DNA from: Candidatus Latescibacterota bacterium
GTDB lineage: Bacteria > Latescibacterota > UBA2968
Direction of reading: 5' to 3'
DNA length: 64,000 bases
Assembly: GCA_965222605.1 (NCBI GenBank)
Contig: OZ244960.1
Span: 736,001 to 800,000, forward strand
The notes beneath the pieces are model-generated. The model saw nothing but the letters and a program-made list of their open reading frames with translations, was not told where the DNA came from and did not search any database. The translations under genes were made by a program, and so were the position numbers. Below, one piece after another: positions 40,960 to 58,608 of the stretch (positions are counted from its first letter, which is position 1; each line of letters begins with the position of its first letter).

Positions 40960-42015
40960 ATGTCTCGCATCGGACGCGCCGCAGTGATGAGCGGCGAAAA
41001 ATTTGAAATACGCGAATATCCCGTTCCCGATCCAGAACCGGGATCGATTTTGCTCAAACAAGAACTCGCCGGCATCTGTGGCACAGACCTGCACAACTGG
41101 GAATATCAGCGGTTGCAGGGCGAGATCATTCTCGGCCACGAAAATGTCGGCATCATCGACAGCCTGGGATCGGGTGTAGAAACCGATTCCCTGGGCAATC
41201 CCATCGCGCCCGGAGATCGGGTTCTCTTCGCGCCCGGCACAAATCGCGGTGCGTACGGTTTTTTGCAAGCCGAAGAAGCTCCTTATTTGCGGGGTGGTTT
41301 TGGTGAATACATCTACCTGTGGAACCCCGATACTCTGGTGCTCAAAACCGATATGCCCGCCGAAGTTGCGGTCATCACCGAGCCTTTTACCATTGGCGTA
41401 CACGGCGCGATGCGTTCGGGCCTGCAATTTGGCGACACCGTTGTCGTACAGGGATCGGGAGCTATTGGCCTGCTCACGCTCGTCGCCGCCAAAGTCAGCG
41501 GCGCAGGGCGGCTCATCATGGTCGGCGGCCCCAAAGGGCGTTTGGAACTGGCCGAACGACTCGGCGCAGATCTCACCATCGACATTGCCGACATATCCGA
41601 TCCCGAAGAACGCACCCAAATCGTGCGCGAAAATACGCCCCGCGGCGAAGGCGCCGACGTCGTCTTTGAATGCGCGGGATTTTTGCCCGCCATTCCCGAA
41701 GGCGTCACATTCCTGCGGCGCAGCGGCACCTATGTCGCCATGGGCCATTTTGTCGATGTGGGATCTTTTGATTGCAATCCCAACCAGATGTTTATGCGCC
41801 GCAACATGCGCCTCGAAGCCGTGTGGGCAAGCGCGCCCGAACACTTTGTGCGCGCGCTCCCCATCCTCGAGCGAAACGAATATCCCTTTGCCGACCTCGT
41901 CAGCCACACCATACCCATTGACCGCGTAGCCGAAGGGTTCAACGCCCTGCACAGCGGGTATCATCTCGACGACAAAGACACGATCAAAATTGCAATAAAA
42001 GGCGGGCTTGTCTAA
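40960..42015 (+). CDS. Zinc-binding medium-chain alcohol dehydrogenase
   Basis: GICGTD, GHE, GSGAIG; lacks the four-Cys structural Zn lobe. Confidence 0.9.
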   Translation: MSRIGRAAVMSGEKFEIREYPVPDPEPGSILLKQELAGICGTDLHNWEYQRLQGEIILGHENVGIIDSLGSGVETDSLGNPIAPGDRVLFAPGTNRGAYGFLQAEEAPYLRGGFGEYIYLWNPDTLVLKTDMPAEVAVITEPFTIGVHGAMRSGLQFGDTVVVQGSGAIGLLTLVAAKVSGAGRLIMVGGPKGRLELAERLGADLTIDIADISDPEERTQIVRENTPRGEGADVVFECAGFLPAIPEGVTFLRRSGTYVAMGHFVDVGSFDCNPNQMFMRRNMRLEAVWASAPEHFVRALPILERNEYPFADLVSHTIPIDRVAEGFNALHSGYHLDDKDTIKIAIKGGLV

Positions 42016-42050
42016 ATTTTCAAAGAAGGCTTTAATGCGGTAATATTGTA

Positions 42051-42080
42051 AGGGGATCGGGCAACCGATCCTCTTTTTTT
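42051..42080 (+). terminator. Intrinsic terminator
   Basis: AGGGGATCGG-gcaa-CCGATCCTCT followed by a T run. Confidence 0.85.
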
Positions 42081-42212
42081 AGCAAATTACTGAGTAAAAG
42101 TCTCCTGTAATTTAGCACCTGAATAGGTTTTTACCCGAGCGATGAGCCTTCTTCGACATCAAGTTCAACACATGCTTTGATTGCCAATGGGGTTGAAATA
42201 GACGTTGAACAG

Positions 42213-42336
42213 GTGTATCCCGGCGTTTACAGTAGTGTATCCCACTGTTTACACTTTATTTATTTTTATATAAATCAATCAGTTATTTGTATTTTTACTT
42301 GAATTAGCAATTACAAGTGTATCCTGTCGTTTACAC
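42213..42336 (+). promoter_or_regulatory. Three TGT-N12-ACA upstream activator boxes plus an IHF consensus site
   Basis: GTGTATCC-N4-GTTTACA at 42213, 42235 and 42317; AATCAATCAGTTA (WATCAANNNNTTR) at 42273-42285. Confidence 0.72.
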
Positions 42337-42446
42337 TTATAACTGATTGTCGCATTTGCAACACAAATAATTATTAAAATTTATCCCTTTGTTTTTCAAG
42401 CACTTGAAGATGGTTCAAGTGCTTTTTTTTTGTACCGAATGATTTT

Positions 42447-42462
42447 TGGCACACATCTTGCA
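42447..42462 (+). promoter_or_regulatory. Sigma54 (-24/-12) promoter
   Basis: TGGCAC-ACATC-TTGCA, exact consensus, about 60 bp upstream of the ATG at 42521. Confidence 0.82.
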
Positions 42463-42520
42463 ATAATAAAGGCTTAAGACAGTGACCGTATTAAAATTTT
42501 CACATTGTAAGGAGAGTAAT

Positions 42521-45500
42521 ATGACGAACATGCAATCCGTATTGTATGCCATAGCCATAAGTGTTATCCTGATCTCTGGACGTGTTGCTGCCCAAACCTC
42601 GCCACCGTCTGCTCCTGCTGCGGTGACAAACCTCGCTGCTGAGGCGGGGGATCAATACGTAACACTGAGTTGGGATAACCCGAACAACGCGAGCATCACG
42701 ACCTATCAGTATCGTCAAAGCGAAGATAGCGGCAGCACCTATTCGCCGGACTGGACAGATATTACCGGCAGTGATGAGAACACAACCAGTCACAGAGTAG
42801 AGAATCTGACAAATGACACTGAATACACCTTCGAGATACGTGCGGTGAATGCGACTGGTAATGGCGCGTCTGTTAGCGTGAGTGCCACGCCGGTCTTGCC
42901 ACCATTGACAGTGACCTGGCCTGAAGATATAAAGGGCACGGAAGACAGTTCCATCTGGACCTCATCAACATCTACTCCCCCTCAGATAACCGTATCCGGA
43001 GGACGACCATCCTATACGTATGAAATAGCCGCAGAGGGAGCACCCACAGGTCTTTCTATTGATCCATTGGGAACCCTCACAGGCACACCTACACAGAATG
43101 GGACTTTCACAACAGTAACAGTAGTTGTGCGGGATGACGCAGGTCAGAGTGTGAGTAATGACCTGAGCGTAACAATTTCTCCACCGCTGAGCATCTCACC
43201 GATAGCGTATAAAACAGTCGAACAGGGCAGCCAGATTACCCCGATCCATTTATCAGCAACCGGCGGTTGGGACCCCTATACATATTCCCTATCCGGCGCA
43301 CCTTCAGGTATCTCTTTATCAAGTGATAATCGCATCACAGGCAGACCTTCACAGGATGGGACTTTCCCAATTACCGTAACCGTGACCGATGATCACGGCA
43401 ATACTGCGGATCACAGTTTCGATATGAGTGTTTATTCGATGGAACTTGCCAAACTATTTTCTCCGATTTTGATTTTGACAGAACATCCAACGCGCAAGGA
43501 CCGCAAAGTGATCTTCCCCGAACCCGTGGAAATAATGGGTGTAACATCTGTTGACAGTCTTTGGTTTCATTTTACTGATGAGGAATCACATATATTACCT
43601 GATCTTGATCTTTCTTATCAAAACTTAAGCACATCTGAGCGTAATGATCTCATTGCTTTTTACCAGAGGCAATATCCTGATATTAATTTTTCCCAAAATA
43701 AGTTCGCCTCTATACCTGAAGTCTTAACTTTCGATACAGAACAGTCAATAAGGGGCACTTCTGTAGGAGGTGTTAGGGCACATTTTGAATATCCTGGCGT
43801 ACGTGAAGACAACGACGAAGGCACCTCTAAAAACTGGTATCACTATTATTTTTCAACTACCCATCCTAAACGTGGGGATCATCCAAATTTTCCCCATACA
43901 GCATACGTGCATATTTTTGATGAAGGAGGTCAAGTCGTAATACGGTATTATTACTTTTATCCCTTTAATGATTGGCAAAATAACCATGAGGGAGATTGGC
44001 CGCACATTAATGTTATCGTAACATCTCATGACCCAAATGTGGCAGAACTCGTTGGAATTGACTACACATTTCATGGGAATGGCCTAACCTATAACAGCAT
44101 TGGTGAAAGGGTTTTTGACCCTCAAAAAGATTTTGCACCGGCTGAAGGCGGAACTCATCCGGTTGTCTATGTAGGAGCAGGTTCCCATGGTGGCTATCCT
44201 ACGGGAGGTAATTATAAGGATCCCGGTGGTCATGCTATTGATTTGGGGCCAATAGAAGCGGGAGGTTGGGATGAAGGTATGACAAAGAGTGGCGTTGTCC
44301 TGAGCACCAGGGTTGAGGACACAAATCCTGATGTCGCACAATCTTATGATTTAATACTTCTGCCCAATCCAGATCCAGGTCAACCCAATAAGGGTTTGAC
44401 ATCAGAGATGAGTTGGTTAGGTAGCGAAGCAAGATGGGGGACACTGGAAGTTCATTCACCGGGAAGTGGGCTCCCATTTGAGAGGGCACAACAACTAAAT
44501 GATTCTCCTGTAGGGCCGTTTCATAAAGATAGCTGGGGCACTTCGGGAGCGAGTGGTTATTCCAAAAGAGAAGTTCCTTATGGAAAATTTCCCAGTCCAG
44601 ATCCCAGATCATCACCAAGAGATGATGAACACAGTAAACGATGGTTTCAACAATTCCCAATTGTGCAAAACGTTACCTGGCGTGATACAATAAAGCTGAT
44701 TGGTGATATTGTGGTCTATCCTGGCGCGACCTTGACGATTGATGCTGGCACAACGATTAAGGCTTACCCCAATCGAGATATTCATAGCATGAAGGATTCA
44801 AATCGCGTCGATATTATCAACCATGGAACGATAATCGCCAATGGAACAAGCTCTCAGCCCATTGTATTTCGTTCCGACAGTTCAACTCCTGCGTCAGGAC
44901 ACTGGTATGGCATCAGGAATCACGGCGATTTGACCATGAGCCATTTTACGATTCAACATTCAGTAGTTGGCCTGGATTTGCAAGGTACGCAGACATTGAC
45001 AGATATGACATTGTCGAACAATACCAGGAATAATACCACCCCCCTGGCGATTGCATCAATAGCAGATGTAACAGCGACTCAAAATGGGGCAATTACAGAT
45101 ATATCGGTAAGTGCATCAGGTGGTTGGGGATCTTATACGTATTCCACATCTGACTTACCTTCAGGTATCGTCTTTGATCAAGAAAGTGCTCTCATCACTG
45201 GCACACCCAAAGCAACTGGCGAATCTGACATTACAGTGACGGTACGAGATGCTGTAAATGACGAGGCATCCACAACGTTTAACTTGTCTGTTTCTGCGGC
45301 TACTCGTCCCCTGAGCATCGCGACAATAGCGGATGTGATAGCCACTCAGGATGAGGCAATTACCCCCATAAAGGTAAAAGCGTCAGGTGGTGGCGGAGCC
45401 TATACGTATTCGATAGCGAGCAACCCTGCCACAGGCTCTGGTCTTTCTATTGATTCGAATGGCCGCATTACTGGCACACCCACAGTGAGTGACGATTTCA

Positions 45501-46045
45501 AGATCACAGTAACCGTGCGAGATGCACCCGGCCGTGCTTTACCCATACAGACAAGTCGTTCTTGTTCCATGCACGTGAGACCGCGCGTGACAGTCTCGAC
45601 AATAAGCAATATAACCGTCAAGATCAGTGGCGTGCAGACGAACAGCCCGATTACCCCTATTCAGGTCTCAGCATCAGGGGGACAAACGTCTTATGCGTAT
45701 TCCCTATCCAGCAACCCTGCCACAGGTTCCGGTCTGTCCATCAATGCAACCAGTGGACAAATCACAGGCACACCAACACAGACAGGTACTTTCTCACTTA
45801 CTGTGACTGTAACCGATGATCACGGCAGGACAGGAACAGGCAGTTTCTCTATGACTGTTCGTCTGATAGCTGACTTTAATGATGATGGTGTGGTCAATGT
45901 AGCAGATCATTTACTTTTTGTGGCCGTGTTTGGTCTATCCGAAGGTGATGATGGTTTTAATGCTGATATGGATCTGGATGGTGATGGAACCATTGGCACG
46001 CCCGATTTTCTAATCTTTGTAAGTCACTTTGGCTCCTCTGCATAG
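42521..46045 (+). CDS. Large secreted protein: FN3, 2 putative Ig (He_PIG), NPP1/Vps62-like core, short beta-helix, 3 Ig, dockerin/EF-hand tail
   Basis: Signal peptide; LSW..P/LTNDTEYTFEIRAVN; repeated SGG..Y.YS..GLSI..G.ITGTPT; YYYFYPFND..NNHEGDW and HPVVYVGAGSH; DFNDDGVV..D and DLDGDGTI..DF; AAGGAG RBS. Confidence 0.85.
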   Translation: MTNMQSVLYAIAISVILISGRVAAQTSPPSAPAAVTNLAAEAGDQYVTLSWDNPNNASITTYQYRQSEDSGSTYSPDWTDITGSDENTTSHRVENLTNDTEYTFEIRAVNATGNGASVSVSATPVLPPLTVTWPEDIKGTEDSSIWTSSTSTPPQITVSGGRPSYTYEIAAEGAPTGLSIDPLGTLTGTPTQNGTFTTVTVVVRDDAGQSVSNDLSVTISPPLSISPIAYKTVEQGSQITPIHLSATGGWDPYTYSLSGAPSGISLSSDNRITGRPSQDGTFPITVTVTDDHGNTADHSFDMSVYSMELAKLFSPILILTEHPTRKDRKVIFPEPVEIMGVTSVDSLWFHFTDEESHILPDLDLSYQNLSTSERNDLIAFYQRQYPDINFSQNKFASIPEVLTFDTEQSIRGTSVGGVRAHFEYPGVREDNDEGTSKNWYHYYFSTTHPKRGDHPNFPHTAYVHIFDEGGQVVIRYYYFYPFNDWQNNHEGDWPHINVIVTSHDPNVAELVGIDYTFHGNGLTYNSIGERVFDPQKDFAPAEGGTHPVVYVGAGSHGGYPTGGNYKDPGGHAIDLGPIEAGGWDEGMTKSGVVLSTRVEDTNPDVAQSYDLILLPNPDPGQPNKGLTSEMSWLGSEARWGTLEVHSPGSGLPFERAQQLNDSPVGPFHKDSWGTSGASGYSKREVPYGKFPSPDPRSSPRDDEHSKRWFQQFPIVQNVTWRDTIKLIGDIVVYPGATLTIDAGTTIKAYPNRDIHSMKDSNRVDIINHGTIIANGTSSQPIVFRSDSSTPASGHWYGIRNHGDLTMSHFTIQHSVVGLDLQGTQTLTDMTLSNNTRNNTTPLAIASIADVTATQNGAITDISVSASGGWGSYTYSTSDLPSGIVFDQESALITGTPKATGESDITVTVRDAVNDEASTTFNLSVSAATRPLSIATIADVIATQDEAITPIKVKASGGGGAYTYSIASNPATGSGLSIDSNGRITGTPTVSDDFKITVTVRDAPGRALPIQTSRSCSMHVRPRVTVSTISNITVKISGVQTNSPITPIQVSASGGQTSYAYSLSSNPATGSGLSINATSGQITGTPTQTGTFSLTVTVTDDHGRTGTGSFSMTVRLIADFNDDGVVNVADHLLFVAVFGLSEGDDGFNADMDLDGDGTIGTPDFLIFVSHFGSSA

Positions 46046-46087
46046 TTTTTTAGTGCAAGAGACAGCTTTTTATCCGGAGGAATCATC

Positions 46088-46849
46088 ATGACACATATAG
46101 CAGCAATTGTTCTAATTTTGGGACTCTGTCTGCCTCAGACTCTGTTGGCAGGCGTGGTCCTTCAAGCTGGTGAGATTGACAGCAGCAAGGTGAAAGTCGG
46201 GGCCTATGCCGAAGTCATCTATGGAACCGGTGAGAAACTATCTACGGCACGCGGCTACATTCAGGCTGTTGATGCTGAGAGTTTGACCATTAGCCAAGGT
46301 TTGGGGAAGCGGATAGCCTTTGAGCGCATACAACAACTGATTCTTGCAGAATCATCTTTCGAAATGGACAGGCTTAAAAAGACAACAGATATACTTTTTG
46401 TGAGAAAAGAGAACAAACCCAGGCGGATTGTTGGCAAGTTGGCAGGTGGTGTCCTGGGAGGGACCCTTATTGGCCTTGCGGTAGGCTCGGCCGCTGAGAA
46501 GGCTGGTGACTGTACGGGAACATTTTGTGGCGTGGGAAATTTTGTAATTGTTGGATGGATTGGCTATCTCGTCGGCGTGCCCGTCGGCATGAGCTTCTTT
46601 GATCCGTACGATCAATTTAAGTATTCATTGGCAGGCAGCCTGATAGGGGGTGCAGCAAGTCTTGTGATATTCACAGATGTAGAGTTAGCAGAAGAAAAAC
46701 TCTGGCCAGCCCTTTTTATCGGCCCCCTTGTCGGGGCTACAATTATGTCCGAGTTTTTTCGAAAACCGCCAGAGAATCGTCGTGTCTCCATCGGTCTGCT
46801 ACCCGGTCCCAAAGTCAGAGTATCCGCTGTTGCCACACTTCGATTTTGA
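46088..46849 (+). CDS. Array family A protein, copy A1 (signal peptide, small beta domain, Gly-rich helices, C-terminal beta hairpin ending in Phe)
   Basis: GGAGG RBS; paralog of 47793, 50876 and 56619; ends VSAVATLRF. Confidence 0.85.
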   Translation: MTHIAAIVLILGLCLPQTLLAGVVLQAGEIDSSKVKVGAYAEVIYGTGEKLSTARGYIQAVDAESLTISQGLGKRIAFERIQQLILAESSFEMDRLKKTTDILFVRKENKPRRIVGKLAGGVLGGTLIGLAVGSAAEKAGDCTGTFCGVGNFVIVGWIGYLVGVPVGMSFFDPYDQFKYSLAGSLIGGAASLVIFTDVELAEEKLWPALFIGPLVGATIMSEFFRKPPENRRVSIGLLPGPKVRVSAVATLRF

Positions 46850-46955
46850 GTAGGTGACAAAAAACCTTCTGGATCGCGGCTTAAAGCATGCCGCGATGAC
46901 ACACGGGACGGCACGGGAACCGTCCCGTGCAACAACGGGCACGCGCAGTCCAACA
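46850..46955. repeat. Composite REP-like palindromic element, copy 1
   Basis: CTGGATCGCGGC..GCCGCGATGAC plus CACGGGACGG..CCGTCCCGTG; repeated at 57420-57530. Confidence 0.8.
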
Positions 46956-47012
46956 AGTCCTCAACCCCTCTTTTTTGTCTGCGTTCACCTGCGTCATCTG
47001 CACCTGCTCAAG

Positions 47013-47749
47013 CCCTGAGTATCGCGACAATAGCGGATGTGATAGCCACTCAGGATGAGGCAATTACCCCCATAAAGGTAAAAGCGTCAGGTGGTGGCGG
47101 AGCCTATACGTATTCGATAGCGAGCAACCCTGCCACAGGCTCTGGTCTTTCTATTGATTCGAATGGCCGCATTACTGGCACACCCACAGTGAGTGACGAT
47201 TTCAAGATCACAGTAACCGTGCGAGATGCACCCGGCCGTGCTTTACCCATACAGACAAGTCGTTCTTGTTCCATGCACGTGAGACCGCGCGTGACAGTCT
47301 CGACAATAAGCAATATAACCGTCAAGATCAGTGGCGTGCAGACGAACAGCCCGATTACCCCTATTCAGGTCTCAGCATCAGGGGGACAAACGTCTTATGC
47401 GTATTCCCTATCCAGCAACCCTGCCACAGGTTCCGGTCTGTCCATCAATGCAACCAGTGGACAAATCACAGGCACACCAACACAGACAGGTACTTTCTCA
47501 CTTACTGTGACTGTAACCGATGATCACGGCAGGACAGGAACAGGCAGTTTCTCTATGACTGTTCGTCTGATAGCTGACTTTAATGATGATGGCGTGGTCG
47601 ATACATCAGATCATTTACTTTTTGTGGCCGCGTTTGGTCTATCCGAAGGTGATGATGGTTTTAATGCTGATATGGATCTGGATGGCGATGGAACCATTGG
47701 TACGCCCGATTTTCTAATCTTTGTAAGTCACTTTGAATCCACTGCATAG
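47013..47749 (+). pseudogene. Start-less cassette 1: near-identical copy of 45309-46045 (2 Ig + dockerin)
   Basis: Offset 1704 bp; differences concentrated in the dockerin part; no RBS or signal peptide. Confidence 0.88.
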
Positions 47750-47792
47750 TTTTTTTGGTGCAGAAGATAGATCTCTATCAGGAGGAATCATC

Positions 47793-48605
47793 ATGACACA
47801 TATAGCAGCAATCGTAATGATTTTGGGATTCTGTCTGCCCCAGGCTCTGATAGCAGGCGTAGTCCTTGAAGCCGGTGAGATTGACAGCAGCAAGGTGAAA
47901 GTCGGTGCCTATGCCGAAGTCATCTATGGAACGGGTGAGCGGGATCAAGTCGCAGGGAAGTGGGAGAAACTGGAGGAGGCACAAGGATATATTAAAGCTG
48001 TTGATCAAGGAAGTTTGACCATTAGCCAGGGTTTGGGGAAGCGGATAGCCTTTGAGCACATACGACAACTGATCCTTGCAGAATCATCTTTCGAAATGGA
48101 CAGACTAAAAAAGACAATAGATACGCTTTTTGTGATAGAGACGACAGAGACGCCTTCTATGAGAATGGAGTACATGCCTGGGCGAATTGTTAGCAAGTTG
48201 GTCGGTGGCGTTCTTTGCGGAGGCCTTTTCGGATTTGTGGGGAGCCTGGTCACCGGGAAGGTGTATTGCAAAAAATCCGACTCTGGAGAGATATGCGGCC
48301 TCCTAGCTTTCGTGGTTGGTGGGACAATTGGCTATACAGTCGGCGTGCCCTTCGGCGTAAGCGTGCTTGATCCGCATGATCAATTCAGGTATTCATTTGC
48401 AGGCAGCCTGATAGGAGGCGCAGCAGGCATTGCCCTGACCCGCGCCGAAGAAGAGCTCTGGCCCTCCCTTCTTATCTGCCCACTTGTCGGAGCTACCATT
48501 CTGTCTGAGCTTACACGCAAACCGCCAGAGAATCGTCGTGTCTCTATTGGTCTGTTTCCCGGTCCCAAAGGCAGATTATCCGCTGTTGCCACACTTCGAT
48601 TTTGA
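47793..48605 (+). CDS. Array family A protein, copy A2
   Basis: AGGAGG RBS; MTHIAAIV start; ends LSAVATLRF. Confidence 0.85.
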   Translation: MTHIAAIVMILGFCLPQALIAGVVLEAGEIDSSKVKVGAYAEVIYGTGERDQVAGKWEKLEEAQGYIKAVDQGSLTISQGLGKRIAFEHIRQLILAESSFEMDRLKKTIDTLFVIETTETPSMRMEYMPGRIVSKLVGGVLCGGLFGFVGSLVTGKVYCKKSDSGEICGLLAFVVGGTIGYTVGVPFGVSVLDPHDQFRYSFAGSLIGGAAGIALTRAEEELWPSLLICPLVGATILSELTRKPPENRRVSIGLFPGPKGRLSAVATLRF

Positions 48606-48618
48606 GGAAGCTGCCAAT

Positions 48619-49685
48619 ACCTGTCTGTTTCTGCGGCTGCCACGGTCATGAGGATCGCATCAATACCGAATGTGATAGCGACTCAAAACGTGGCAATTAC
48701 GTCCATAAAGGTAAAAGCTTCAGGCGGTAGTGGGTCCTACACGTATTGGATAGGGCGCAACCGTCCCCCAGCGAACAACCCTCCTCAAGGTTCTGGCCTT
48801 TCTATCGATTCAAGCAGTGGCCGCATCACTGGCACACCCACAGCGAGTGAAGATTTCACGATCACAGTGGCTGTACGAGATGGGACTGGTAGCCGTTATT
48901 TACCTACACAGGTCAGTCGCTCCTTCATCATGCACGTGAGACCGCGTGTGACTGTCTCGGCAATCGGCAATATCACCGTCACGCAGAGCACCGCTATTAC
49001 TCCTATTCAGGTCTCAGCATCAGGAGGACAAACGTCTTATGCGTATTCTCTGTCCAGCAACCCTGCCGGTTCTGGTCTTTCTATCAATTCGAGCAGTGGC
49101 CAAATCACGGGCACACCAACACAGACAGGTACTTTCACACTGACTGTGACTGTTACCGATGCACACGGCAGGACAGGAACAGGCAGTTTCTCCATGACAG
49201 TAAATGCGCCCACACCCGTTTCGTCACTGACAATCGCAGAGATAAGTGATATAACGATCAAAATAAGTGGTGTGCAGACGAACAGCCCCATTACCCCTAT
49301 TCAGGTTTCAGCATCAGGAGGACAGACGCCATACACGTATTCTATGTCCAGCAATCCCGCTACAGGTTCTGGCCTGTCCATCAATGCGAGCAGTGGAGAG
49401 ATCACAGGTACACCAACACAGAGAGGCTCTTTCACACTGACTGTGACTGTCACCGATAATGCAAGTACGACCGTAACTGATAGCTTCTCAATGGCTGTCA
49501 GTCTGATAGGCGATTTTAATGATGATGGTGTGGTCGATACGTCAGATCATTTACTTCTTGTGGCCGTGTTTGGTCTAACCGAAGGTGCCGATGGTTTTAA
49601 TGCTGAGATGGATCTGAATGGCGATGGAACCATTGATGTTGCCGATTTTCTGATCTTTGTAAGTCACTTTGGTTCCTCTGCATAG
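48619..49685 (+). pseudogene. Start-less cassette 2: divergent 3' end of the large gene (3 Ig + dockerin)
   Basis: Begins abruptly at homology to 45282 (TGTCTGTTTCTGCGGCT); open frame; no signal peptide. Confidence 0.8.
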
Positions 49686-49762
49686 TTTTTTTGGTGTAAG
49701 AAATAACTCATTGACTTTTGAGCGGAATCAATGAGATATATTTGTCTCAAAAGGAGAAACGC

Positions 49763-50695
49763 ATGAAAAAATTAGCTGCTGTCTTTGTAACCGCGACCCT
49801 CTTGCTTAACGCGATGGTTCCCACACTCGCGTATGCAGCCACATACCTGCAAGGCGCAGAGGTCAATGCCGGCATACTCATTCAAGATGCTTATGTTGCT
49901 GTCACCTATTACGATAGCAAGAATAAACAGACGTTAAAAAAAGGCTGGATTGATGCTATTGACGAGACTTCGTTTACCATTCGGAATGGTTTTTGGGGAA
50001 AGAAGACGATTGCTTACGATAAAGTCTTGTCACTAATTCTGAGCGAAGAAGAAACTACGCTAAGGCAAATGAATGAGGTAGATCGGTTTATTGGAAATAT
50101 GGCAGAAAGAGGAATAGAGACAGAGCAAGCCGCTATCCAACTGCTCAATCAAAAGACCATCACAACCATGCCACTTCGAGTGCGTGTATATGCCCCGTCC
50201 ATACAGAAGGGACAGATGGTTGGCAAGCTCATTAAAATGACGCAAGACACGCTGGTTATACAGGCAACACGAACTTCTCAGCAAGTACGCGCAATTTCGC
50301 CCCGCCGAATTCGTGCCCCAAAGGATATCCAACAAGGAGATATAACATTTTATCAAGTACCTATTACTTCAATCTCTCATCTCGAAGTGAGCATGGGACA
50401 GTATAGAAATACAAGCAAAGGCTTGAAAATCGGTCTTGCTACCGGACTTGCCATCTTTGCAGTTTCATACGCTTATGTAAAAAACCTCGAATCTCGTAAT
50501 CCTGATAATATCGACGGTCTAGCCATATTCATATTTGGGACTATAGCCGCTCCATCGGCCTTAGTTATCTCCACTCTGATTGGCGCAATAACAAAATCCG
50601 ACAAATGGGTTGAAGTGTCGCCCCAACGCCTCAACTTGAGCCTTGCCCCCACATCTGGCAAAGGACTTCGCGCTGCACTCACATTCAACTTTTAG
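49763..50695 (+). CDS. Array family B protein, copy B1 (lacks one internal domain)
   Basis: AAGGAG RBS; signal peptide MKKLAAVF..AYA; ends LRAALTFNF. Confidence 0.85.
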   Translation: MKKLAAVFVTATLLLNAMVPTLAYAATYLQGAEVNAGILIQDAYVAVTYYDSKNKQTLKKGWIDAIDETSFTIRNGFWGKKTIAYDKVLSLILSEEETTLRQMNEVDRFIGNMAERGIETEQAAIQLLNQKTITTMPLRVRVYAPSIQKGQMVGKLIKMTQDTLVIQATRTSQQVRAISPRRIRAPKDIQQGDITFYQVPITSISHLEVSMGQYRNTSKGLKIGLATGLAIFAVSYAYVKNLESRNPDNIDGLAIFIFGTIAAPSALVISTLIGAITKSDKWVEVSPQRLNLSLAPTSGKGLRAALTFNF

Positions 50696-50851
50696 TGATG
50701 TAAATGATTCAAATATAGAGTCGAAGTGCGTCAAAACATCTCATACCTTTTCATCCTATTCCTCAGAGCCATCCTCGAGATATCCAGAAGCGCGGATGCT
50801 TACACTTGATTCCCCTCTGTTCGTCGCAATGTCCCTTGTATTCAAGTCTCA
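50696..50851. repeat. Conserved ~155-bp element downstream of family B genes, copy 1
   Basis: TGATG.AAATGATTCAA...CTTGTATTCAAGT(C/G)TCA, also at 53853 and 56047. Confidence 0.85.
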
Positions 50852-50875
50852 GGCTCAACATCAGGAGGAATCATC

Positions 50876-51562
50876 ATGACACATATAGCAGCAATCGTAC
50901 TGCTTTTGGGTCTCTGTCTGCCCCAGGCTCTGTTGGCAGGGGAGGTCCTTCAAGTCGGTGAGATTGACAGTAGCAAGGTAAAAGTCGGTGCCTATGCTGA
51001 AGTCATCTATGGGACGGGTGAGAAACTCTCTACGGCACGCGGCTACATTCAGGCTGTTGATGCTGAGAGTTTGACTATTAGCCAGGATTTTGGGAAGCAG
51101 ATAGCTTTCGAGCGCATACAACAACTGATCCTTGCAGAATCATCTTTCGAAATAGACAGGCTTAAAGAGACAACGGATACGCTTTCTATAAAAAAAGAGA
51201 ACAAACCCAGGAGAATTGTTGGCAAGTTATTCGTCGGTGTTCTTGGAGGGGGTCTTTTCGCCCTTGCGGGGGCCTCAGTTGGAATAAATGTCGATAACTG
51301 CCCTGAGAACGAAACATACTGTCCATTAGGAAATTTTTTAATTGGTGGATGGGTTGGCTATCTCGTCGGCGTGCCCGCAGGCATGAGCTTATTTGATCCA
51401 TACGATCGATTTAAGGATTCATTGGCAGGTAGCCTGATCGGAGGTGCAACAAGTCTTGTGATATTCGCAGATGAAGAGATAGCGGAATATCTCTGGCCAG
51501 TCCTTTTTATTAGCCCCCTTGTCGGCGCAGCAATCAAGTTGGTGAATCTGACATTACAGTGA
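50876..51562 (+). pseudogene. Array family A copy A3, 3'-truncated by fusion to cassette 3
   Basis: Homology to A1 ends at PLVGAAI; the conserved C-terminal ...ATLRF is replaced by sequence matching 45217 onward. Confidence 0.78.
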
Positions 51563-52689
51563 CGGTACGAGATGCTGTAAATGACGAGGCATCCACAACG
51601 TTTAACCTGTCTGTTTCTGCGGCTACTCAAGCCATGGAGATCGCGGCAATAGCGAATGTGATAGCCACTCAGAATGTGACAATTACCCCCATAAAGGTAA
51701 AAGCGTCAGGCGGTAGCGGGTCCTATACGTATTGGATAGGGAGCAACCCTCCCCCAGCGGATGCCCCTCTCCCAGAGAGCAACCCTCCCCCAGGTTCTGG
51801 TCTTTCTATCGATTCCAGCAGTGGTCGCATTACTGGCACACCCACTGCGAGTGGAGATTTCACGATCACAGTCGCAGTGCGAAATGCTGTCGTTAGTCGT
51901 GCTCCCCACACACAGGAAAGTCGCTATTTCACTATGCGCGTGAGACCGCGCGTGACAGTCTCGGCAATAGACGATATAACGGTCACACAGAACACCGCTA
52001 TTACCCCTATACAGGTCTCAGCATTGGGAGGACAAACATCTTACTCCTATTCCATGTCCAGCAACCCTGCCGGTTCTGGTCTTTCTATCAACTCAACCAG
52101 TGGACAAATCACTGGCACGCCAGCACAGGCAGGTACTTTCACACTGACCGTGACTGTGACCGATGCACACGGCAGGACAGGAACAGGCAGTTTCTCCATG
52201 ACGGTAAATGCGCCCACACCCGTTTCGTCACTGACAATCGCAGAGATAAGTGATATAACGGTCAAAATAAGTGGTGTGCAGACGAACAGCCCCATTACCC
52301 CTATTCAGGTTTCAGCATCAGGAGGACAGACGCCATACACGTATTCTATGTCCAGCAATCCCGCTACAGGTTCTGGTCTGTCCATCAATTCGAGCAGTGG
52401 ACAGATCACAGGCACGCCAACACAGAGAGGCTCTTTTACACTGACCGTGACTGTAACTGATAATGCAAGTGCGACTACAACTGATAGCTTCTCGATGGCT
52501 GTCAGTCTGATAGGGGATTTTAATGATGATGGTGTGGTCGATACGTCAGATCATTTACTTTTTGTGGCCGTGTTTGGCCTATCCGAAGGTGATGATGGTT
52601 TTAATGCCGATATGGACCTAAATGGCGATGGAACCATTGGCACGCCCGACTTTCTAATCTTTGTAAGTCACTTTGGCTCCTCTGCATAG
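51540..52689 (+). pseudogene. Start-less cassette 3 (partial Ig + 3 Ig + dockerin)
   Basis: Starts at GAATCTGACATTACAGTGACGGTACGAGATG, matching 45221 onward. Confidence 0.8.
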
Positions 52690-52766
52690 TTTTTTTACTC
52701 CAGAAGATAGCTCATTGACTTTTGAGCGGAATCAATGAGGTGCATTTGTCTCAAAAGGAGAAACAC

Positions 52767-53852
52767 ATGAAAAAATTAGCTGCTGTCTTTGTAACCGCGA
52801 CCCTCTTGCTCAATGCGATGGCTCCCATACTCGCGTATGCAGCTACATACCTGCAAGGCGCAGAGGTCAATGCCGACACACTCATTCAAGATGCTTATGT
52901 GGCAGTCACCTATTACGATAGCAAGAATAAACAGACGTTGGAAAAAGGCTGGATTGATGCTATTGACGAGACCTCGTTTACCATTCGGAGCGGCTTGTGG
53001 GGAAAGAAGACGATTGCTTATACCAAAATCTTGTCACTGGTTATGAGCGAAGAAGCAACCACGCTAAGGCAAATGAATGAGGTAAATCGGTGGTTTATTG
53101 GAAATATGGCAGAAAGAGGACCAGAGACAGAGTTGGCTGCTATCCAACTGCTCAATCAAAAGACCGTCATAATCATGCCACGCGGACAGATTGACCCGTC
53201 AGAGATCTCAAAGGGATGGTATGCCCACATCGTCTATTCATCTCAAGGTGCTACAGGAAAAACCATTAGTCGAATTGCCGATAAGGACTCAAGCCGTATC
53301 GCCCTCAAACATGGGTTTGATACCCATAACATAGCATACAGCGATATTGATACTCTCATTGTTGCCAAACACCTGCGAGAGATCGAGAGTTATCGAGAAA
53401 CCGGTGCCAAATACAATGCTCGAGTGCGTGTGTATGCCCCGTCCATTCAGAAAAGACAGATGGTTGGCAGGCTCATTAAAATGATGCAAGACACGCTCGT
53501 TATCCAAAAAGGGCGTCGCTTTTATCAAGTGCCTATTTCTTCAATCTCTACATTCGACGTCAGCCTCAAACAGTATAGAAACACAGGCAAAGGCTTGATA
53601 ATTGGGCTTGCTGCCGGGGCTAGTATGGCTATCCTGATAAATTTTCCCACGGATGAGGGACCCGATTTGCAAGGATTAGTTCAAGTATACGCCACTATGA
53701 TAATCGTACCCTCAATTGTAGTTATCTCCACTCTGATCGGTGCAATGAAGAAATCCGATAAATGGATTGAGGTGTCGCCTCAACGCCTCAACCTGAGCCT
53801 TGCACCCACATCCAGTAAAGGGCTTCGCGCCGCACTCACATTCAACTTTTAG
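52767..53852 (+). CDS. Array family B protein, copy B2
   Basis: AAGGAG RBS; paralog of B1 and B3; ends LRAALTFNF. Confidence 0.85.
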   Translation: MKKLAAVFVTATLLLNAMAPILAYAATYLQGAEVNADTLIQDAYVAVTYYDSKNKQTLEKGWIDAIDETSFTIRSGLWGKKTIAYTKILSLVMSEEATTLRQMNEVNRWFIGNMAERGPETELAAIQLLNQKTVIIMPRGQIDPSEISKGWYAHIVYSSQGATGKTISRIADKDSSRIALKHGFDTHNIAYSDIDTLIVAKHLREIESYRETGAKYNARVRVYAPSIQKRQMVGRLIKMMQDTLVIQKGRRFYQVPISSISTFDVSLKQYRNTGKGLIIGLAAGASMAILINFPTDEGPDLQGLVQVYATMIIVPSIVVISTLIGAMKKSDKWIEVSPQRLNLSLAPTSSKGLRAALTFNF

Positions 53853-54010
53853 TGATGCAAATGATTCAAAGGCATAGAGTCGAAGTGCGTCAAAACATCT
53901 CACACCTTTTCATCCTATTTCTCAGAACCATCCTCGATATACCCAGAAGCTCGGATGCCTGCACTTGATTCCCCTCTGTTCGTCGCAATACCTCTTGTAT
54001 TCAAGTGTCA
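53853..54010. repeat. Conserved ~155-bp element downstream of family B genes, copy 2
   Basis: Aligns with 50696-50851. Confidence 0.85.
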
Positions 54011-54011
54011 A

Positions 54012-54873
54012 CATCACTGGCACACCCACAGCGAGTAGAGATTTCACGATCACAGTGGCTGTGCGAGAGGGGGCTGGTAGCCGTGATTTACCCACACAGG
54101 TCAGTCGTTCTTTCACCATGCGCGTGAGACCGCGTGTGACTGTCTCGGCAATCGGCAATATCACCGTCACACAGAACACTGCTATTACCCCTATTCAGGT
54201 TTCAGCATCGGGAGGACAAACATCTTATTCCTATTCCCTGTCCAGCAATCCTGCCAGTTCTGGTCTTTCTATCAATCAGAGCAGTGGACAGATCACTGGC
54301 ACGCCAACACAGACAGGCACTTTCACACTGACCGTGACGGTGACCGATGATCACGGCAGGACAGGAACAGGCAGTTTCTCCATGACGGTAAATGCACCTA
54401 CATCCGTTTCGCCCCTGACAATCGCAGAGATCAATGATATAGCGGTCAAGATCAGTGGTGTGCAGACCAACAGCCCGATTACGCCTATTCAGGTCTCAGC
54501 ATCAGGAGGACAAACGCCTTATGCGTATTCTATGTCCAGCAATCCCGCTACAGGTTCTGGTCTGTCCATCAATTCGAGCAGTGGACAGATTACAGGCACG
54601 CCAACACAGAGAGGCTCTTTCACACTGACCGTGACTGTAACTGATAATGCAAGTGCGACTACAACTGATAGCTTCTCGATGGCTGTCAGTCTGATAGGGG
54701 ATTTTAATGATGATGGTGTGGTCGATACGTCAGATCATTTACTTTTTGTGGCAGCGTTTGGTCTATCCGAAGGTGATGATGGTTTTAATGCTGATATGGA
54801 CCTAAATGGCGATGGAACCATTGGCACGTCCGATTTTCTGATCTTTGTAAGTCACTTTGGCTCCTCTGCATAG
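54012..54873 (+). pseudogene. Start-less cassette 4 (half Ig + 2 Ig + dockerin)
   Basis: Begins mid-domain at ITGTPT (CATCACTGGCACACCC). Confidence 0.82.
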
Positions 54874-54948
54874 TTTTTTTGTTCAGGGACAACTCATTGG
54901 CTTTTGAGCGGAACCAATGAATTAGATTTGTCCCAAAAGGAGAATCTC

Positions 54949-56046
54949 ATGAAAAAAACAGCCGCTGTCTTTGTAACTGCGACCCTCTTGCTCAACGCGA
55001 TGGCTCCCATCCTCGCGTATGCAGCCATATACCTGCAAGGTGCAGAGGTCAATGCCGACACACTTATTCAAGATGCCTACGTTGTAGTCACTTATTACGA
55101 TAGCAAGAACAAACAGAAATTGGACAAAGGCTGGATTGGTGCTATTGACGAGACTTCGTTTACCATTCGGAGCAGAGCAATTTTCGGCAAGGAGACTATT
55201 GCTTACGACAAAGTGCTGTCAGTGATCATGAGCGAGGAAGATGCCTCAAGAGGAAAGCAAATCAATGAGGTGGATCGGTTTATTCGAGAGATGGAAAAAC
55301 AAGAGGCAAGAGCGCGAGAGACAGAGCAGGCTGCTATCCAACGGCTCAATCAAAAGACCGTCACAGTCATGCCACGCGGACAGATTGACCTATCAGAGAT
55401 CATAAAGGGATGGTATGCACACATCGTCTATACGTCTCAAGGAGCTACAGGAAAAACCATTAGTCGAATTGCCTATAAGGACACCAGCCACATCGGACTC
55501 AAATATGGAACTGATACCCTTAACATAGCATACAACGATATTGATACCCTCATTGTCGCCAAACACATGCAAGAGATTGAGCGATATAGAGAAACCGGAG
55601 CCAAATACAATGCCCGAGTGCGTGTGTATGCCCCGTCCATTCAGAAGGGACAGATGGTTGGCAAGCTCATTAACATGATGCAAGACACGCTGGTTATTCA
55701 AAAAGAGCGTCGCTTTTATCGGGTGCCTGTTTCTTCAATCTCTAAATTCGACGTCAGCCTCAAACAGTATAGAAACACAGGCAAAGGCTTAAAAATTGGG
55801 CTCGCTGCTGGGACTATTATGACTATCCTGATAAATGTTCCAAACTGGGGCGGGGGCGATTTGCAAGGATTGGCTGAACTATTAGCCACTGCGATATACG
55901 TACCTCCACTTATAGTTATTCCCACTCTGATTGGCGCAATAACAAAATCCGACAAATGGGTCGAAGTGTCCCCCCAACACCTTAACCTGAGCCTTGCACC
56001 CACATCCAGCAAAGGGCTTCGCGCCGCACTCACATTCAACTTTTAG
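54949..56046 (+). CDS. Array family B protein, copy B3
   Basis: AAGGAG RBS; ends LRAALTFNF. Confidence 0.85.
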   Translation: MKKTAAVFVTATLLLNAMAPILAYAAIYLQGAEVNADTLIQDAYVVVTYYDSKNKQKLDKGWIGAIDETSFTIRSRAIFGKETIAYDKVLSVIMSEEDASRGKQINEVDRFIREMEKQEARARETEQAAIQRLNQKTVTVMPRGQIDLSEIIKGWYAHIVYTSQGATGKTISRIAYKDTSHIGLKYGTDTLNIAYNDIDTLIVAKHMQEIERYRETGAKYNARVRVYAPSIQKGQMVGKLINMMQDTLVIQKERRFYRVPVSSISKFDVSLKQYRNTGKGLKIGLAAGTIMTILINVPNWGGGDLQGLAELLATAIYVPPLIVIPTLIGAITKSDKWVEVSPQHLNLSLAPTSSKGLRAALTFNF

Positions 56047-56202
56047 TGATGCAAATGATTCAAGTATAGAGTCGAAGTGCGTCAAAACAACCCATACCTT
56101 TTCATCCTATTCCTCAAAATCATCCTCGAGATACCCAGAAACGCGGATGCTTGCACTTGATTCCCCTCTGTTTGTCGCAATGCTCCTTGTATTCAAGTGT
56201 CA
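56047..56202. repeat. Conserved ~155-bp element downstream of family B genes, copy 3
   Basis: Aligns with the other two copies. Confidence 0.85.
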
Positions 56203-56577
56203 GCATCCGGAGGACAAACGCCTTATACCTATTCCCTGTCCAGCAATCCTACCACGGGCGCCGGTCTGTCCATCAATTCGAGCAGTGGGCAAATCACAGG
56301 CACGCCAACACAGAGAGGCACTTTCACACTTACCGTGACTGTAACTGATAATGCAAGTACGACTGCAACGAATAGTTTCTCCATGGCTGTCAGTCTGATA
56401 GGCGATTTTAATGGTGATGGTACGGTCAATGTATCAGATCATTTGCTTTTTGTGGCCGTGTTTGGTCTATCCGAAGGTGATGATGGTTTTAATGCCGATA
56501 TGGATTTGGATGGCGATGGAACCATTGGTACGCCCGATTTTCTAATCTTTGTAAGTCACTTTGGCTCCTCTGCATAG
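56190..56577 (+). pseudogene. Start-less cassette 5 (1 Ig + dockerin)
   Basis: Begins at IQVSASGGQTPY; ends SHFGSSA*. Confidence 0.82.
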
Positions 56578-56618
56578 TTTTTTTGGTGCAGGAGACTGCT
56601 TTTTGTCAGGAGGAATAC

Positions 56619-57419
56619 ATGACACATCTAACAGCAATCGTTATGATTTTGGGTCTATGTCTGCCACAGGCTCTGTTGGCAGGGGTGGTCCTTAAAGCCG
56701 GTGAGGTTGACAGTAGCAAGATTGAAGTCGGTGCCTATGCCGAGGTCATCTATGGGACGGGTGAGCGGGATTCGGTCTCAGGAAAGTGGAAAAAACTGGA
56801 CACGGCACAAGGATATATTAAAGCCGTTGATGCAGAGAGTTTGACTATTGGACGCGGTTTTTGGAAGGAGCAGATTGCCTTTGAGAGCATACAAAAGCTG
56901 CTCCTTGCAGAGTCTGACCGCGAAATGGACAGGCTTAAAGAGACGACTGATTCGCTTTCTGAAATAGATAACAGACGACAAGGACAAAATAGAGGCGGAG
57001 GACGGATTGCCAAAAAGTTGGCAGGCGGCGTTCTTGGAGGAATCCTGTTCGGTATGGCGGGGGGCTTCGCCGGTGCGGTGATCGGTGACTGCGGAGAGAA
57101 CGTTTCATTCTGCGAATTAGAAAACTTTTTTATTGGTGGATGGTATGGCTATGTCGTCGGAGTACCCGTCGGCATGAACCGAATAGATCCACAGGATCGC
57201 TTCACATATTCATTGGCAGGTAGCCTGATCGGAGGTGCGGCAAGTCTTGTACTAACGGACTCCAAAGACGAGTTCTGGACTCTTATTATCTGCCCCCTTG
57301 TCGGCGCGGCGATCATGTCCGAATTTTTTCGAAAACCGTTAGAAGTTCGCCGTGTCTCCATCGGTCTGCTACCCGGTCCCAAAGGACGAGTATCCGCTGT
57401 TGCCACGCTTCGATTTTGA
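56619..57419 (+). CDS. Array family A protein, copy A4
   Basis: AGGAGG RBS; ends VSAVATLRF. Confidence 0.85.
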   Translation: MTHLTAIVMILGLCLPQALLAGVVLKAGEVDSSKIEVGAYAEVIYGTGERDSVSGKWKKLDTAQGYIKAVDAESLTIGRGFWKEQIAFESIQKLLLAESDREMDRLKETTDSLSEIDNRRQGQNRGGGRIAKKLAGGVLGGILFGMAGGFAGAVIGDCGENVSFCELENFFIGGWYGYVVGVPVGMNRIDPQDRFTYSLAGSLIGGAASLVLTDSKDEFWTLIICPLVGAAIMSEFFRKPLEVRRVSIGLLPGPKGRVSAVATLRF

Positions 57420-57530
57420 GTAGGTGACAAAAAACCTTCTGGATCGCGGCTTAAAAACACGCCGCGATGACACACGGGACGGCACGGGGACCGTCCCCTA
57501 CAACAACGGGCGAGCACGCGCAGCCCAACC
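57420..57530. repeat. Composite REP-like palindromic element, copy 2 (includes a GTAG-type REP on the minus strand)
   Basis: Near-identical to 46850-46955; minus strand reads GTAGGGGACGGTCCCCGTGCCGTCCC. Confidence 0.8.
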
Positions 57531-57558
57531 AAAAGCGCGATTATAAAACAAACGGCTG

Positions 57559-58608
57559 CTAAGATATCATGGCCGGCAAATCCGTCCGCTCGCCCCGGAC
57601 AGCTATTGCTTCTCGTAAACTGCGGGCATGGGGGGCTTCCCCGTTCAGGACCCGACCAATATCACCAGCCATCACTTCTGCCACCCGCAAGTTGGCATCA
57701 CGGGTGCGGCCCGCAATATGTGGTGTATGGACCACATTGATTCGATTTCGTAACGGATCGTCTTCTGGTACGGGTTCTCTATCATACACATCGAAAGCAC
57801 CTGCCAGCTCATTTGCAATAATCCGTTCCCTCAACGCTTCCATATCCACTGCGTACGCACGTGTGGTAATCACCACCAGCGCACCTTTTCGCAGCCGATA
57901 AATCCGCTCGCGTGACAAGATCTTCTCGGCCGATGGCGTCGGTGGAATCGTCACAACGACAATCTCACTTTCATCCACCAGGGCATCTATCTCTACACCC
58001 TCCACACCGAGCTCAACCAGCCGATCTCTGGAGATAAACGGATCATATCCCAGTACGCGTGATCCCAATGCGCTGCACCACTGTGCCATACGGCCACCAA
58101 TCTGTCCCAGCCCCATCACGCCAACAGTCTTTGAACCCAATGTGCCATTGACAAAATCGGGATTATCACAGAACTGGGCATATTCAAAATCCCACAAACG
58201 TTCGCCTGCAGCCATGCGTTTGTGCCATTGCGGAATCATACGCAGTGCATTCAACGTAAGTGCCAGTGTTATTTCAGCCACCGAAGTTGCCCACCCACGG
58301 GTCGCATCAATAATCGCAATATCGCGCTCAAACATCGGATCTACCGCCAGGCTGCGAAAGCCTCCTCCAAAAACACCACCTACAACCTTTAGCGCTGGCG
58401 CCCTTACCAAACAAGCTTCAGTCAATTGACCGCCAAACATCGCAATGGCAGAGACCCTGGAAAGGTCAGCTACTTCACCAATCGGCTGATCGCGTTCGAC
58501 GTTAACGACCTGGACTTCATCAATATCATTTAGCTGTTTCAGCAAAGCCTCTGGCACAAACGGCCACGACTTCTCCAGATTTTTGCTGCGTGCAAATAAA
58601 ATCGCCAT
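57559..58608 (-). CDS. D-isomer-specific 2-hydroxyacid dehydrogenase family protein
   Basis: SVAE, GVMGLGQIG, YDP, FDVYDREP, TPHIAG. Confidence 0.9.
   Translation of the reverse strand: MAILFARSKNLEKSWPFVPEALLKQLNDIDEVQVVNVERDQPIGEVADLSRVSAIAMFGGQLTEACLVRAPALKVVGGVFGGGFRSLAVDPMFERDIAIIDATRGWATSVAEITLALTLNALRMIPQWHKRMAAGERLWDFEYAQFCDNPDFVNGTLGSKTVGVMGLGQIGGRMAQWCSALGSRVLGYDPFISRDRLVELGVEGVEIDALVDESEIVVVTIPPTPSAEKILSRERIYRLRKGALVVITTRAYAVDMEALRERIIANELAGAFDVYDREPVPEDDPLRNRINVVHTPHIAGRTRDANLRVAEVMAGDIGRVLNGEAPHARSLREAIAVRGERTDLPAMIS

Follow-up and report, generated by a model that had tools for sequence, protein, structure and literature searches.

A probable recombination-built array of displaced 3' gene tails and polymorphic partner genes in a Latescibacterota genome

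We analysed a locus in which one complete gene for a secreted protein is followed by five start-less copies of its own 3' end, interleaved with genes of two families, A and B, that carry no annotation. It lies at 42.4-57.5 kb of a 64,000-nucleotide (nt) stretch, here called the window, of contig OZ244960.1 (assembly GCA_965222605.1) from Latescibacterota; positions are counted from the window start, and the genome (G000) is assembled as a single 6.34-Mb contig. The likely explanation is an array of displaced 3' tails with polymorphic partner genes, built by recombination, in which the tail serves as the recombination handle. We arrive at this explanation because only one copy has a start, a ribosome binding site and a signal peptide, because one of the start-less tails (f3) ends a full gene elsewhere, because the blocks containing B genes are mosaic, because a 500-nt tract of tail is perfectly repeated, and because the number of tails varies. 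The genes run along the + strand in the order main gene, A1, f1, A2, f2, B1, A3' (truncated), f3, B2, f4, B3, f5 and A4, as follows (SD, Shine-Dalgarno sequence; Ig, immunoglobulin-like domain; aa, amino acids).

42521..46045, + strand: full-length main gene with signal peptide; SD taaggagagtaat before ATG 42521
46088..46849, + strand: A1 (253 aa), with a signal peptide, a small domain at the N-terminus, ~4 membrane helices by prediction and the C-terminus ...ATLRF; no Pfam match
46997..47749, + strand: tail f1 (2 Ig and dockerin), start-less; 47097-47597 is 100% identical to main gene 45393-45893
47793..48605, + strand: A2, with SD; an A type differing from A1 and common to a second array in this genome
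48619..49685, + strand: tail f2 (3 Ig and dockerin), start-less
49763..50695, + strand: B1, with SD; a B-family member lacking the middle barrel
50876..51562, + strand: A3', an A gene truncated by the f3 junction (~51533-51536), with ~34 codons missing from its end, from the junction alignment
51540..52689, + strand: tail f3, start-less, beginning within an Ig domain; in-frame 3' end of a full gene in the congener G031 and in a contig of run X3
52767..53852, + strand: B2, with SD; 1 difference in 1083 nt from its G031 counterpart
53999..54873, + strand: tail f4, start-less; its junction is common to G031 and G017b
54949..56046, + strand: B3 (by its model three Sm/SH3-like barrels, a long helix, 2 membrane helices and a disordered ...ALTFNF tail); 1 difference in 1095 nt from G031
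56190..56577, + strand: tail f5 (part of the last Ig and dockerin), start-less; G031 and a contig of run X6 lack f5 and A4 (56164-57548)
56619..57419, + strand: A4, with SD

The main protein consists of a signal peptide, an fn3 domain, two He_PIG Ig domains, a central domain of ~480 aa, three further He_PIG Ig domains and a dockerin (Pfam); an alternative start at GTG 42482 is possible. An earlier reading made from the sequence alone (the sequence-only reading) had noted that the Ig and dockerin 3' end occurs six times, with stops at 46045, 47749, 49685, 52689, 54873 and 56577, and the open reading frames (ORFs), a repeat search and Pfam all agree. The repeat search recovered a six-copy family at 45588, 47292, 49228, 52232, 54416 and 56120 (identity 68-100%), and He_PIG was matched in all six 3' ends (E 6e-49 to 7e-11). 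Dockerin_1 scores were 17.8-30.9 bits against a cut-off of 22.9, with four of the six copies above it and the main gene (17.8) and f1 (21.3) below. By self-BLAST, homology to the main gene begins at window positions 46997 (f1), 48619 (f2), 51540 (f3), 53999 (f4) and 56190 (f5), equivalent to main-gene positions 45293, 45282, 45217, 45453 and 45658. The earlier count of five different internal starts is therefore right in that there are five entry points, but those of f1 and f2 lie just 11 nt apart. The alignment places the starts of f3, f4 and f5 inside an Ig domain.

Neither an SD-like sequence nor a signal-peptide-like N-terminus was found in any of f1-f5, and all five tail frames are open over lengths of 126-376 codons; inspection of SD sites and N-termini thus confirmed what had been read from the letters. 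An SD (GGAGG/AGGAG) 6-9 nt before the ATG precedes the main gene (42521), A1, A2, A3, A4 and B1-B3, and in each of these a hydrophobic N-terminus follows the start ATG. The claim that every copy is followed by an A or B gene with a good ribosome binding site holds for the SDs, with the amendment that the cut A3' stands between B1 and f3. Among themselves the tails are 77-100% identical, with mostly synonymous differences, and the only larger difference is between three and four Ig repeats.

The comparison with G031 carries most of the argument. Its syntenic locus, L049, corresponds at 1-2497 to window 41093-43573, and its upstream flank together with the greater part of the main gene can be aligned to window 41093-45858. 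L049 4090-8716 then matches window 51540-56163 at 96%, such that the full gene of G031 continues as f3 and is followed by B2, f4 and B3, and L049 8732-9109 matches the downstream flank at window 57549-57926. G031 is without ~45283-51540 (the present tail, A1, f1, A2, f2, B1 and A3') and without f5 and A4. Other samples (runs X1, X3 and X6) were compared by aligning contigs, not reads, to the window. One X3 contig joins 45213 to 51537 and skips 6323 nt, with 0 differences in 173 nt on the f3 side and 12 differences in 104 nt on the upstream side; because the first side is identical to the window and the second differs, the contig represents a third haplotype. An X6 contig joins 56163 to 57549 (1385 nt skipped), and a further X3 joint, from 46814 to 48577 (1762 nt skipped), makes an A1/A2 hybrid. 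Four other joints were left unused: 46907 to 57481 (X1) and 46902 to 57474 (X3), with sides of <30 nt within a palindromic repeat of the A1 and A4 flanks; 51977 to 54445 (X3), with one side of 29 nt; and 46267 to 56826 (X1), which is ambiguous. That f3 is the 3' end of the full gene in both G031 and X3 upholds the view that the fragments are homology arms, or orphans, derived from the full gene and do not stand alone as genes.

The differences between G000 and G031, 182 in 4624 aligned nt, are sharply partitioned along this segment:

51540-52339 (f3): 111 differences in 800 nt
52340-54189 (end of f3, B2, spacers and start of f4): 2 differences in 1850 nt
54190-54939 (f4): 66 differences in 750 nt
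54940-56163 (B3): 3 differences in 1224 nt

Synonymous divergence (dS) between the two genomes is 0.149 and 0.232 in flanking genes, 0.22-0.25 in the tails and 0 in the B blocks. With the flanks at these values, it is the tails that stand at ordinary species divergence and the B blocks that are the anomaly. Since they are near-identical while tails and flanks are at species divergence, the B blocks must, on these alignments, have passed between the lineages recently, the breakpoints falling within the tails. X6 contigs repeat the pattern, with 0-1 differences in pieces of B2 and B3 and 10 in 380 nt of f4, which speaks against cross-assembly as the source of the near-identity. Within the genome, the main tail and f1 share a 500-nt tract at 100% identity, compared with 50-90% per 100 nt between A1 and A2, which indicates that gene conversion has recently taken place between the expressed gene and one of the silent tails.

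At the right edge of the extra segment A3 lacks its final ~34 codons and meets f3 to within a few bases (~51533-51536); over its first 65 nt f3 is identical to main gene 45217-45283. The segment at ~45283-51540 is bounded on its right by an illegitimate junction that truncates A3 and is flanked by the 65-nt stretch common to main gene and f3; the A3'/f3 edge is what a crossover in that stretch would leave, given in addition a pre-existing or illegitimate joint between A3' and a tail. Tails of the f3 type form the 3' end of full genes in G031, G017b and G014, and the junction from B2 into f4 is common to three species (G000, G031 and G017b). For these two reasons the three-Ig tail of the window's main gene would be the newcomer and f3 the displaced original, although the direction is not proven. 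In a tree of the central domain, the main gene nests among genes whose first partner is a B gene (99% support in the Shimodaira-Hasegawa-like approximate likelihood ratio test, SH-aLRT), as would be expected had a B-first ancestor taken up an A-first module; one congener locus, G011b, was omitted from two trees as it is split.

We propose that a module made up of a tail and its partner gene or genes would enter by a crossover in the tail, pushing the former tail and partner downstream. It might do so by homology-facilitated illegitimate recombination, or as a circular intermediate integrated through a single crossover. Unequal crossing-over between tails would duplicate or delete units, and double crossovers in flanking tails would swap single partner cassettes, also across species. 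Gene conversion with the expressed tail would keep the silent tails open. The partner genes are probably co-expressed, since each has its own SD and no internal terminator was detected within the array; the net product would in that case be a growing, exchangeable set of partner-protein types.

Several observations weigh against this account. The same picture as from an insertion in the window would result if the lineage of G031 had lost the segment through a crossover in the 65 nt common to main gene and f3. Of 15 fragment pairs, 14 have a ratio of non-synonymous to synonymous divergence (dN/dS) of 0.13-0.34, the exception being main gene against f1, with 0.69 at a dS of 0.03; f4, start-less in both G000 and G031, has a dN/dS of 0.10 at baseline dS, which would also fit translation. 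The tails f1 and f2 are in frame with A1 and A2 and separated from them by the A stop codon alone (46847-46849 and 48603-48605). Finally, no perfect intragenomic donor was found for the divergent tail tracts, the best being 93.6% identical.

The open frames could reflect translation, or continual homogenisation with expressed tails. We favour the second because f3-f5 begin in the middle of an Ig domain, because translation and export signals are lacking, because f3 is part of a full gene elsewhere and because one tail of the second array has decayed. Under neutral drift by substitutions only, the chance of a long fragment staying free of stops at 6-10% divergence is 0.08-0.31 per fragment. The frame that f1 and f2 share with A1 and A2 may be chance, the units being copies of one another; the first tail of the second array likewise lies in frame behind a single stop codon. 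In sum, the tails are probably not translated.

The second array in this genome (3455952-3474900; L055) begins with a 1964-aa paralogue of the main protein (~60% identical). Eight start-less tails come after it, the last of them partial, and every one precedes an A, A-short or B gene. One of the eight tails is frameshifted (L055 11361-11684). Some dockerins there end in ...SHYPGTAARFF instead of ...SHFGSSA. The same partner types recur in both arrays (A2 with Ab2, A4 with Ab8, A1 with Ab5, B2 with Bb2 and B3 with Bb1).

Among relatives we compared twelve loci in ten congeners. The number of tails ranges from 0 to ~5 in these loci, and from 0 to 8 overall (8 in the second array):

no tail (main-A, main-B or main-A-B): G007, G017a, G011a, G011b, G011c, G006
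one start-less tail: G031, G017b, G003
about five start-less tails: G014

The first partner is an A gene in G000 (both arrays), G007, G014, G017a, G011a and G011c, and a B gene in G031, G017b, G006, G003 and G011b. That array content and order should differ among relatives was thus borne out, with 0 to ~5 tails and varied first partners. A co-variation of tail and partner was not: on a tree of 26 tails the partner label requires 6 changes, compared with 8.6 in shuffles (27 of 500 shuffles needed as few), and tails cluster by genome and array, not by the type of partner that follows. As the tree reads, this clustering is concerted evolution rather than tail-partner co-variation.

No Pfam or NCBIfam family was found for A or B. 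The A family has 175 relatives in the database, none of them named, and the B family 400 cluster representatives at E <=0.001. The partners of this genome form discrete types whose membrane helices are their most divergent part; over A columns 126-200 the proportion of non-synonymous sites that differ (pN) is 0.31-0.46, and its ratio to the synonymous proportion (pN/pS) 0.55-0.79. The two families weakly share an N-terminal barrel and have similar C-terminal motifs. 'A-short' genes without residues ~35-91 of the A family, which make up this barrel, recur in several genomes (L055 10497-11075; L013 15252-15821 and 16685-17257; L024 11584-12138; L022; L051; L052). The model of B3 (mean predicted local distance difference test score, pLDDT, 87.8) has an N-terminal helix, three Sm/SH3/Tudor-like barrels with the long helix between the first and second, two membrane helices and a disordered tail. 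Structure searches with it (Foldseek, TM <=0.14; VIA-align, Z <=8.2) returned only generic Tudor/Sm/SH3/RimP-like barrels and no functional lead, and the RimP SH3 model is touched by 8 of 41 B-family members. The A1 model is poor (mean pLDDT 52.6), with ~4 helices predicted in the glycine-rich C-terminal half, and the protein atlas gave only unnamed clusters for A1 (0.87). A search for longer, fused forms of B found none, which is weak evidence.

We also considered whether the partners could be receptors for the dockerin. Of a cohesin-dockerin pair the array offers the dockerin, above cut-off in the four copies noted, and not the cohesin: Pfam finds none in A or B, and the B3 model consists of Sm/SH3-like barrels. 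Across the genome there are 60 dockerin matches and 4 cohesin matches, all of the latter elsewhere; with cohesins available elsewhere, A and B need not be dockerin receptors. PorP/SprF (PF11751) was likewise not matched in A or B, core genes and C-terminal-domain models of the type IX secretion system not having been searched for. The sole PF11751 match in the genome (58712-59428, - strand; 23.5 bits against a cut-off of 22.3) is an unrelated neighbour gene 1.3 kb downstream of the array.

As to function, the sequence-only reading had suggested a poly-immunity array as one of two possibilities. In such a poly-immunity or poly-antidote array the mechanism would be the same, the main protein being a secreted polymorphic effector and A and B membrane immunity proteins gathered by one displacement after another, as in the type VI secretion clusters of Vibrio cholerae. 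The discreteness of the partner types and their divergence in the membrane helices (A columns 126-200) speak for it, as do their recurrence in both arrays and the exchange of partner cassettes between species. So does a hypervariable block in the central domain of the main gene (43496-43940, aa ~325-475), where pN against G031 is 0.26-0.42, compared with a proportion of synonymous differences (pS) of 0.16-0.35 in the rest of the gene. This block is itself a mosaic, the window version being 59-60% like both an A-first and a B-first gene, and its short-loop variant 'DKVSWNNTY' occurs in three of four B-first and none of seven A-first full genes. As the 11 genes compared are all kin, that count is weak, and the suggestive co-variation of block and first partner is a lead rather than a finding. 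In the main gene and every fragment, Pfam and NCBIfam recognised only fn3, He_PIG/Ig-like and dockerin families, and, with PDB sequence searches added, no toxin, Rhs, VENN or other effector domain was found in them; for the central domain itself, Pfam gave nothing up to E 10 and the PDB sequence search nothing below E 0.65. The variable block lies 1.3 kb from the partner and is in no fragment, so effector type and 'immunity' would not travel together, and the main genes of the window and G017b share part of the block but have different first partners. The partners, moreover, bear signal peptides and up to three Sm/SH3-like barrels, which would be unusual for immunity proteins. With no toxin domain recognised and with partners that are signal-peptide-bearing membrane proteins, we judge poly-immunity unlikely.

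A second alternative is programmed variation. Silent-cassette systems such as pilE/pilS, vlsE and msp2 combine one expressed copy with start-less partial copies and work by gene conversion. The array resembles them in its single expression site, its start-less partial copies and the conversion between an expressed and a silent copy. The tails could be silent cassettes, often copied into the expression site or recombined with it, that vary the Ig stalk (three versus four repeats) or the first co-expressed partner, and the 500-nt perfect tract between main gene and f1, the differing Ig numbers among tails and the alternative joints in other samples could all be cited in support. The cassettes here, however, hold hardly any protein diversity, at 77-100% identity and mostly synonymous differences (dN 0.05-0.14 and dN/dS 0.13-0.34 between fragment pairs), and are interleaved with complete, probably expressed genes. 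Switching by deletion cannot be reversed. Position may not matter for expression, as each partner has its own SD and promoter-like and terminator-like sites are not enriched in the array (22 found against 24.2 expected from shuffles, and 11 against 13.3). No recombinase was found among the 11 flanking ORFs scanned by Pfam (36164-42015 and 57559-62426), as had been remarked before for the neighbourhood. Every variant seen can be explained as a difference between lineages, and the contigs, the only material compared, give no evidence of high-frequency switching. Recombinational switching of partners, also raised from the sequence alone, survives in part: the full gene does run into f3 and B2 in G031 and X3, but the programmed or high-frequency form finds no support in differences that were seen only between lineages and in partners that each have their own ribosome binding site. 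We regard programmed variation as quite improbable.

It is very unlikely that the fragments give rise to small Ig-dockerin proteins of their own, perhaps by read-through from the preceding partner gene or re-initiation behind it. Their open frames, a dN/dS of 0.1-0.34 and the position of f1 and f2 in frame with A1 and A2 behind one stop would fit. They lack an SD, an ATG in context and a signal peptide for domains that act outside the cell; f3-f5 start in mid-Ig, f3 belongs to a full gene elsewhere, and one of eight tails in the second array is frameshifted. That strain variants of one locus were concatenated in assembly is scarcely credible: the source is a metagenome-assembled genome and the repeats include a 500-nt perfect tract, but the units, at 77-90% identity, are easily resolved by long reads, the same grammar recurs in the second array and in G014, G003, G031 and G017, X1 contigs cover all 30 bins of the array (316 of 454 aligned pieces at >=99%), and the partner genes are of different types.

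Several features around the array and elsewhere in the genome deserve mention. One pair of repetitive extragenic palindromic (REP)-like elements occurs twice in the array:

46862..46935, no strand assigned: two REP-like palindromes after A1; the same pair follows A4 at 57432-57505

The pair consists of ATCGCGGC...GCCGCGAT and GGGACGG...CCGTCCC, and its core has only 5-9 exact copies in this genome. Metagenome contigs pile up and fray at these pairs, their loose ends lying at 46860/46900 and 57461/57505 and their depth reaching 509; because they do so exactly there, the element must be widespread. A strong terminator-like hairpin (42398-42424; 11 pairs and a T-run) lies ~95 nt before the main ATG, inside the presumed leader, and no Rfam family was matched there or elsewhere in 41500-58500. 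Upstream, a HepT-like toxin gene (38168-39074, - strand; PF20797, E 4e-29) overlaps an ORF of 150 aa upstream of it that Pfam does not recognise, and the two may form a HepT/MNT toxin-antitoxin pair. Downstream, G031 has ~6 kb (L049 10136-16230) between two genes that are adjacent in the window (59509-59632). A third locus (4582000-4609600; L056 and L057) encodes two secreted proteins with WD40 repeats and a dockerin (1614 and 1016 aa) and an ORF with leucine-rich repeats and a dockerin, each beside A-like genes; further on, A-like and B-like genes alternate and are accompanied by proteins of 303-338 aa with aromatic ends and no Pfam match. Near it, the ORF at 4580832-4581956 is, by its look, presumably an IS200/IS605 TnpB-like gene.

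The closest known counterparts are the orphan modules of Rhs, contact-dependent inhibition (CDI) and MafB loci. Work by Koskiniemi et al. from 2014 reportedly belongs beside the Rhs displacement arrays and the CDI and MafB orphan modules. For Rhs, the part of Jackson et al. (2009, PMC2935791) considered here describes C-terminal displacement, with arrays of dissociated tips, circular intermediates and laterally acquired alternatives. Like these orphans, as far as that part of the source describes them, our locus has a full gene followed by 5'-truncated, 3'-homologous copies with differing starts, each with a downstream gene; arrays vary between relatives, and homologous recombination would act without a dedicated recombinase. 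Directly after each tip, where such loci have a cognate immunity gene, lies here a gene for a signal-peptide-bearing membrane protein. The tips themselves are conserved Ig repeats and dockerin (77-100% identical) rather than a variable toxin, and it is the downstream gene that varies; the 'reverse' polarity that the sequence-only reading drew from this analogy holds. Also unlike Rhs and CDI loci, this one, in the phylum Latescibacterota, has no Rhs/YD, haemagglutinin, VENN or toxin domain, encodes a Sec-secreted protein and stands in no visible context of a type VI secretion system (T6SS) or two-partner secretion; no T6SS genes were noticed among the flanking ORFs scanned, no genome-wide search having been made.

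In V. cholerae T6SS clusters, the part of Kirchberger et al. (2017, PMC5361080) on which we draw describes displacement of effector-immunity pairs by homology-facilitated illegitimate recombination, which, so described, fits the cut A3'/f3 junction. In those arrays, by the same part of the paper, downstream genes accumulate that are near-identical to primary pairs elsewhere, with the upstream 3' stubs shifted back, and this is seen here too: f3-B2 is the primary pair in G031, B2 and B3 each being 1 nt from their G031 counterparts at a flank dS of 0.15-0.23. Unlike the V. cholerae stubs, the tails are long, kept open and homogenised with the expressed copy, and they lie on both sides of each partner, so that single cassettes could be replaced by double crossover. 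The array also resembles integrons, in part by the account in PMC5361080, in that new cassettes would enter beside an 'anchor' gene, push older ones back and draw on an exchangeable pool; it differs in that Pfam finds no integrase in the 11 ORFs scanned on its flanks, attC sites not being part of that search, and in that the repeat is a coding tail used by homologous recombination. The earlier verdict that this is not a described system stands for the locus itself, but the mechanism, as far as the parts of the two papers considered here go, matches C-terminal displacement (PMC2935791) and the V. cholerae displacement arrays (PMC5361080). A limited literature search on Latescibacteria dockerin/cohesin proteins and truncated copies found no earlier description of this type of locus.

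The locus is therefore best seen as a variant of the displaced-tip array, real and recurrent, that is new in its protein family, its phylum, its conserved tip and its tail-bracketed partners. A bolder view, which we hold to be doubtful, is that it represents a new cassette-exchange system of Latescibacterota, in which the tail is kept even when silent as a universal handle on both sides of each partner, allowing capture, stacking, deletion and swapping across species without a recombinase, and in which partner types set a specificity (immunity, anchoring or recognition) with which the hypervariable block co-evolves.

Displaced-tip arrays have so far been a hallmark of polymorphic toxin loci, and here one is found in an uncultured phylum around a secreted Ig/dockerin protein that is not toxin-like. 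Its polarity is reversed, with a constant tip and a variable neighbouring gene, and two protein families without annotation are involved. The sister-species comparison, with cassettes 99.9% identical, is unusually clean evidence for coding repeats as handles of cassette exchange. Should specificity prove to lie in the partner types, this locus would define a new system for self/non-self or surface display, and a function would be assigned to families A and B.

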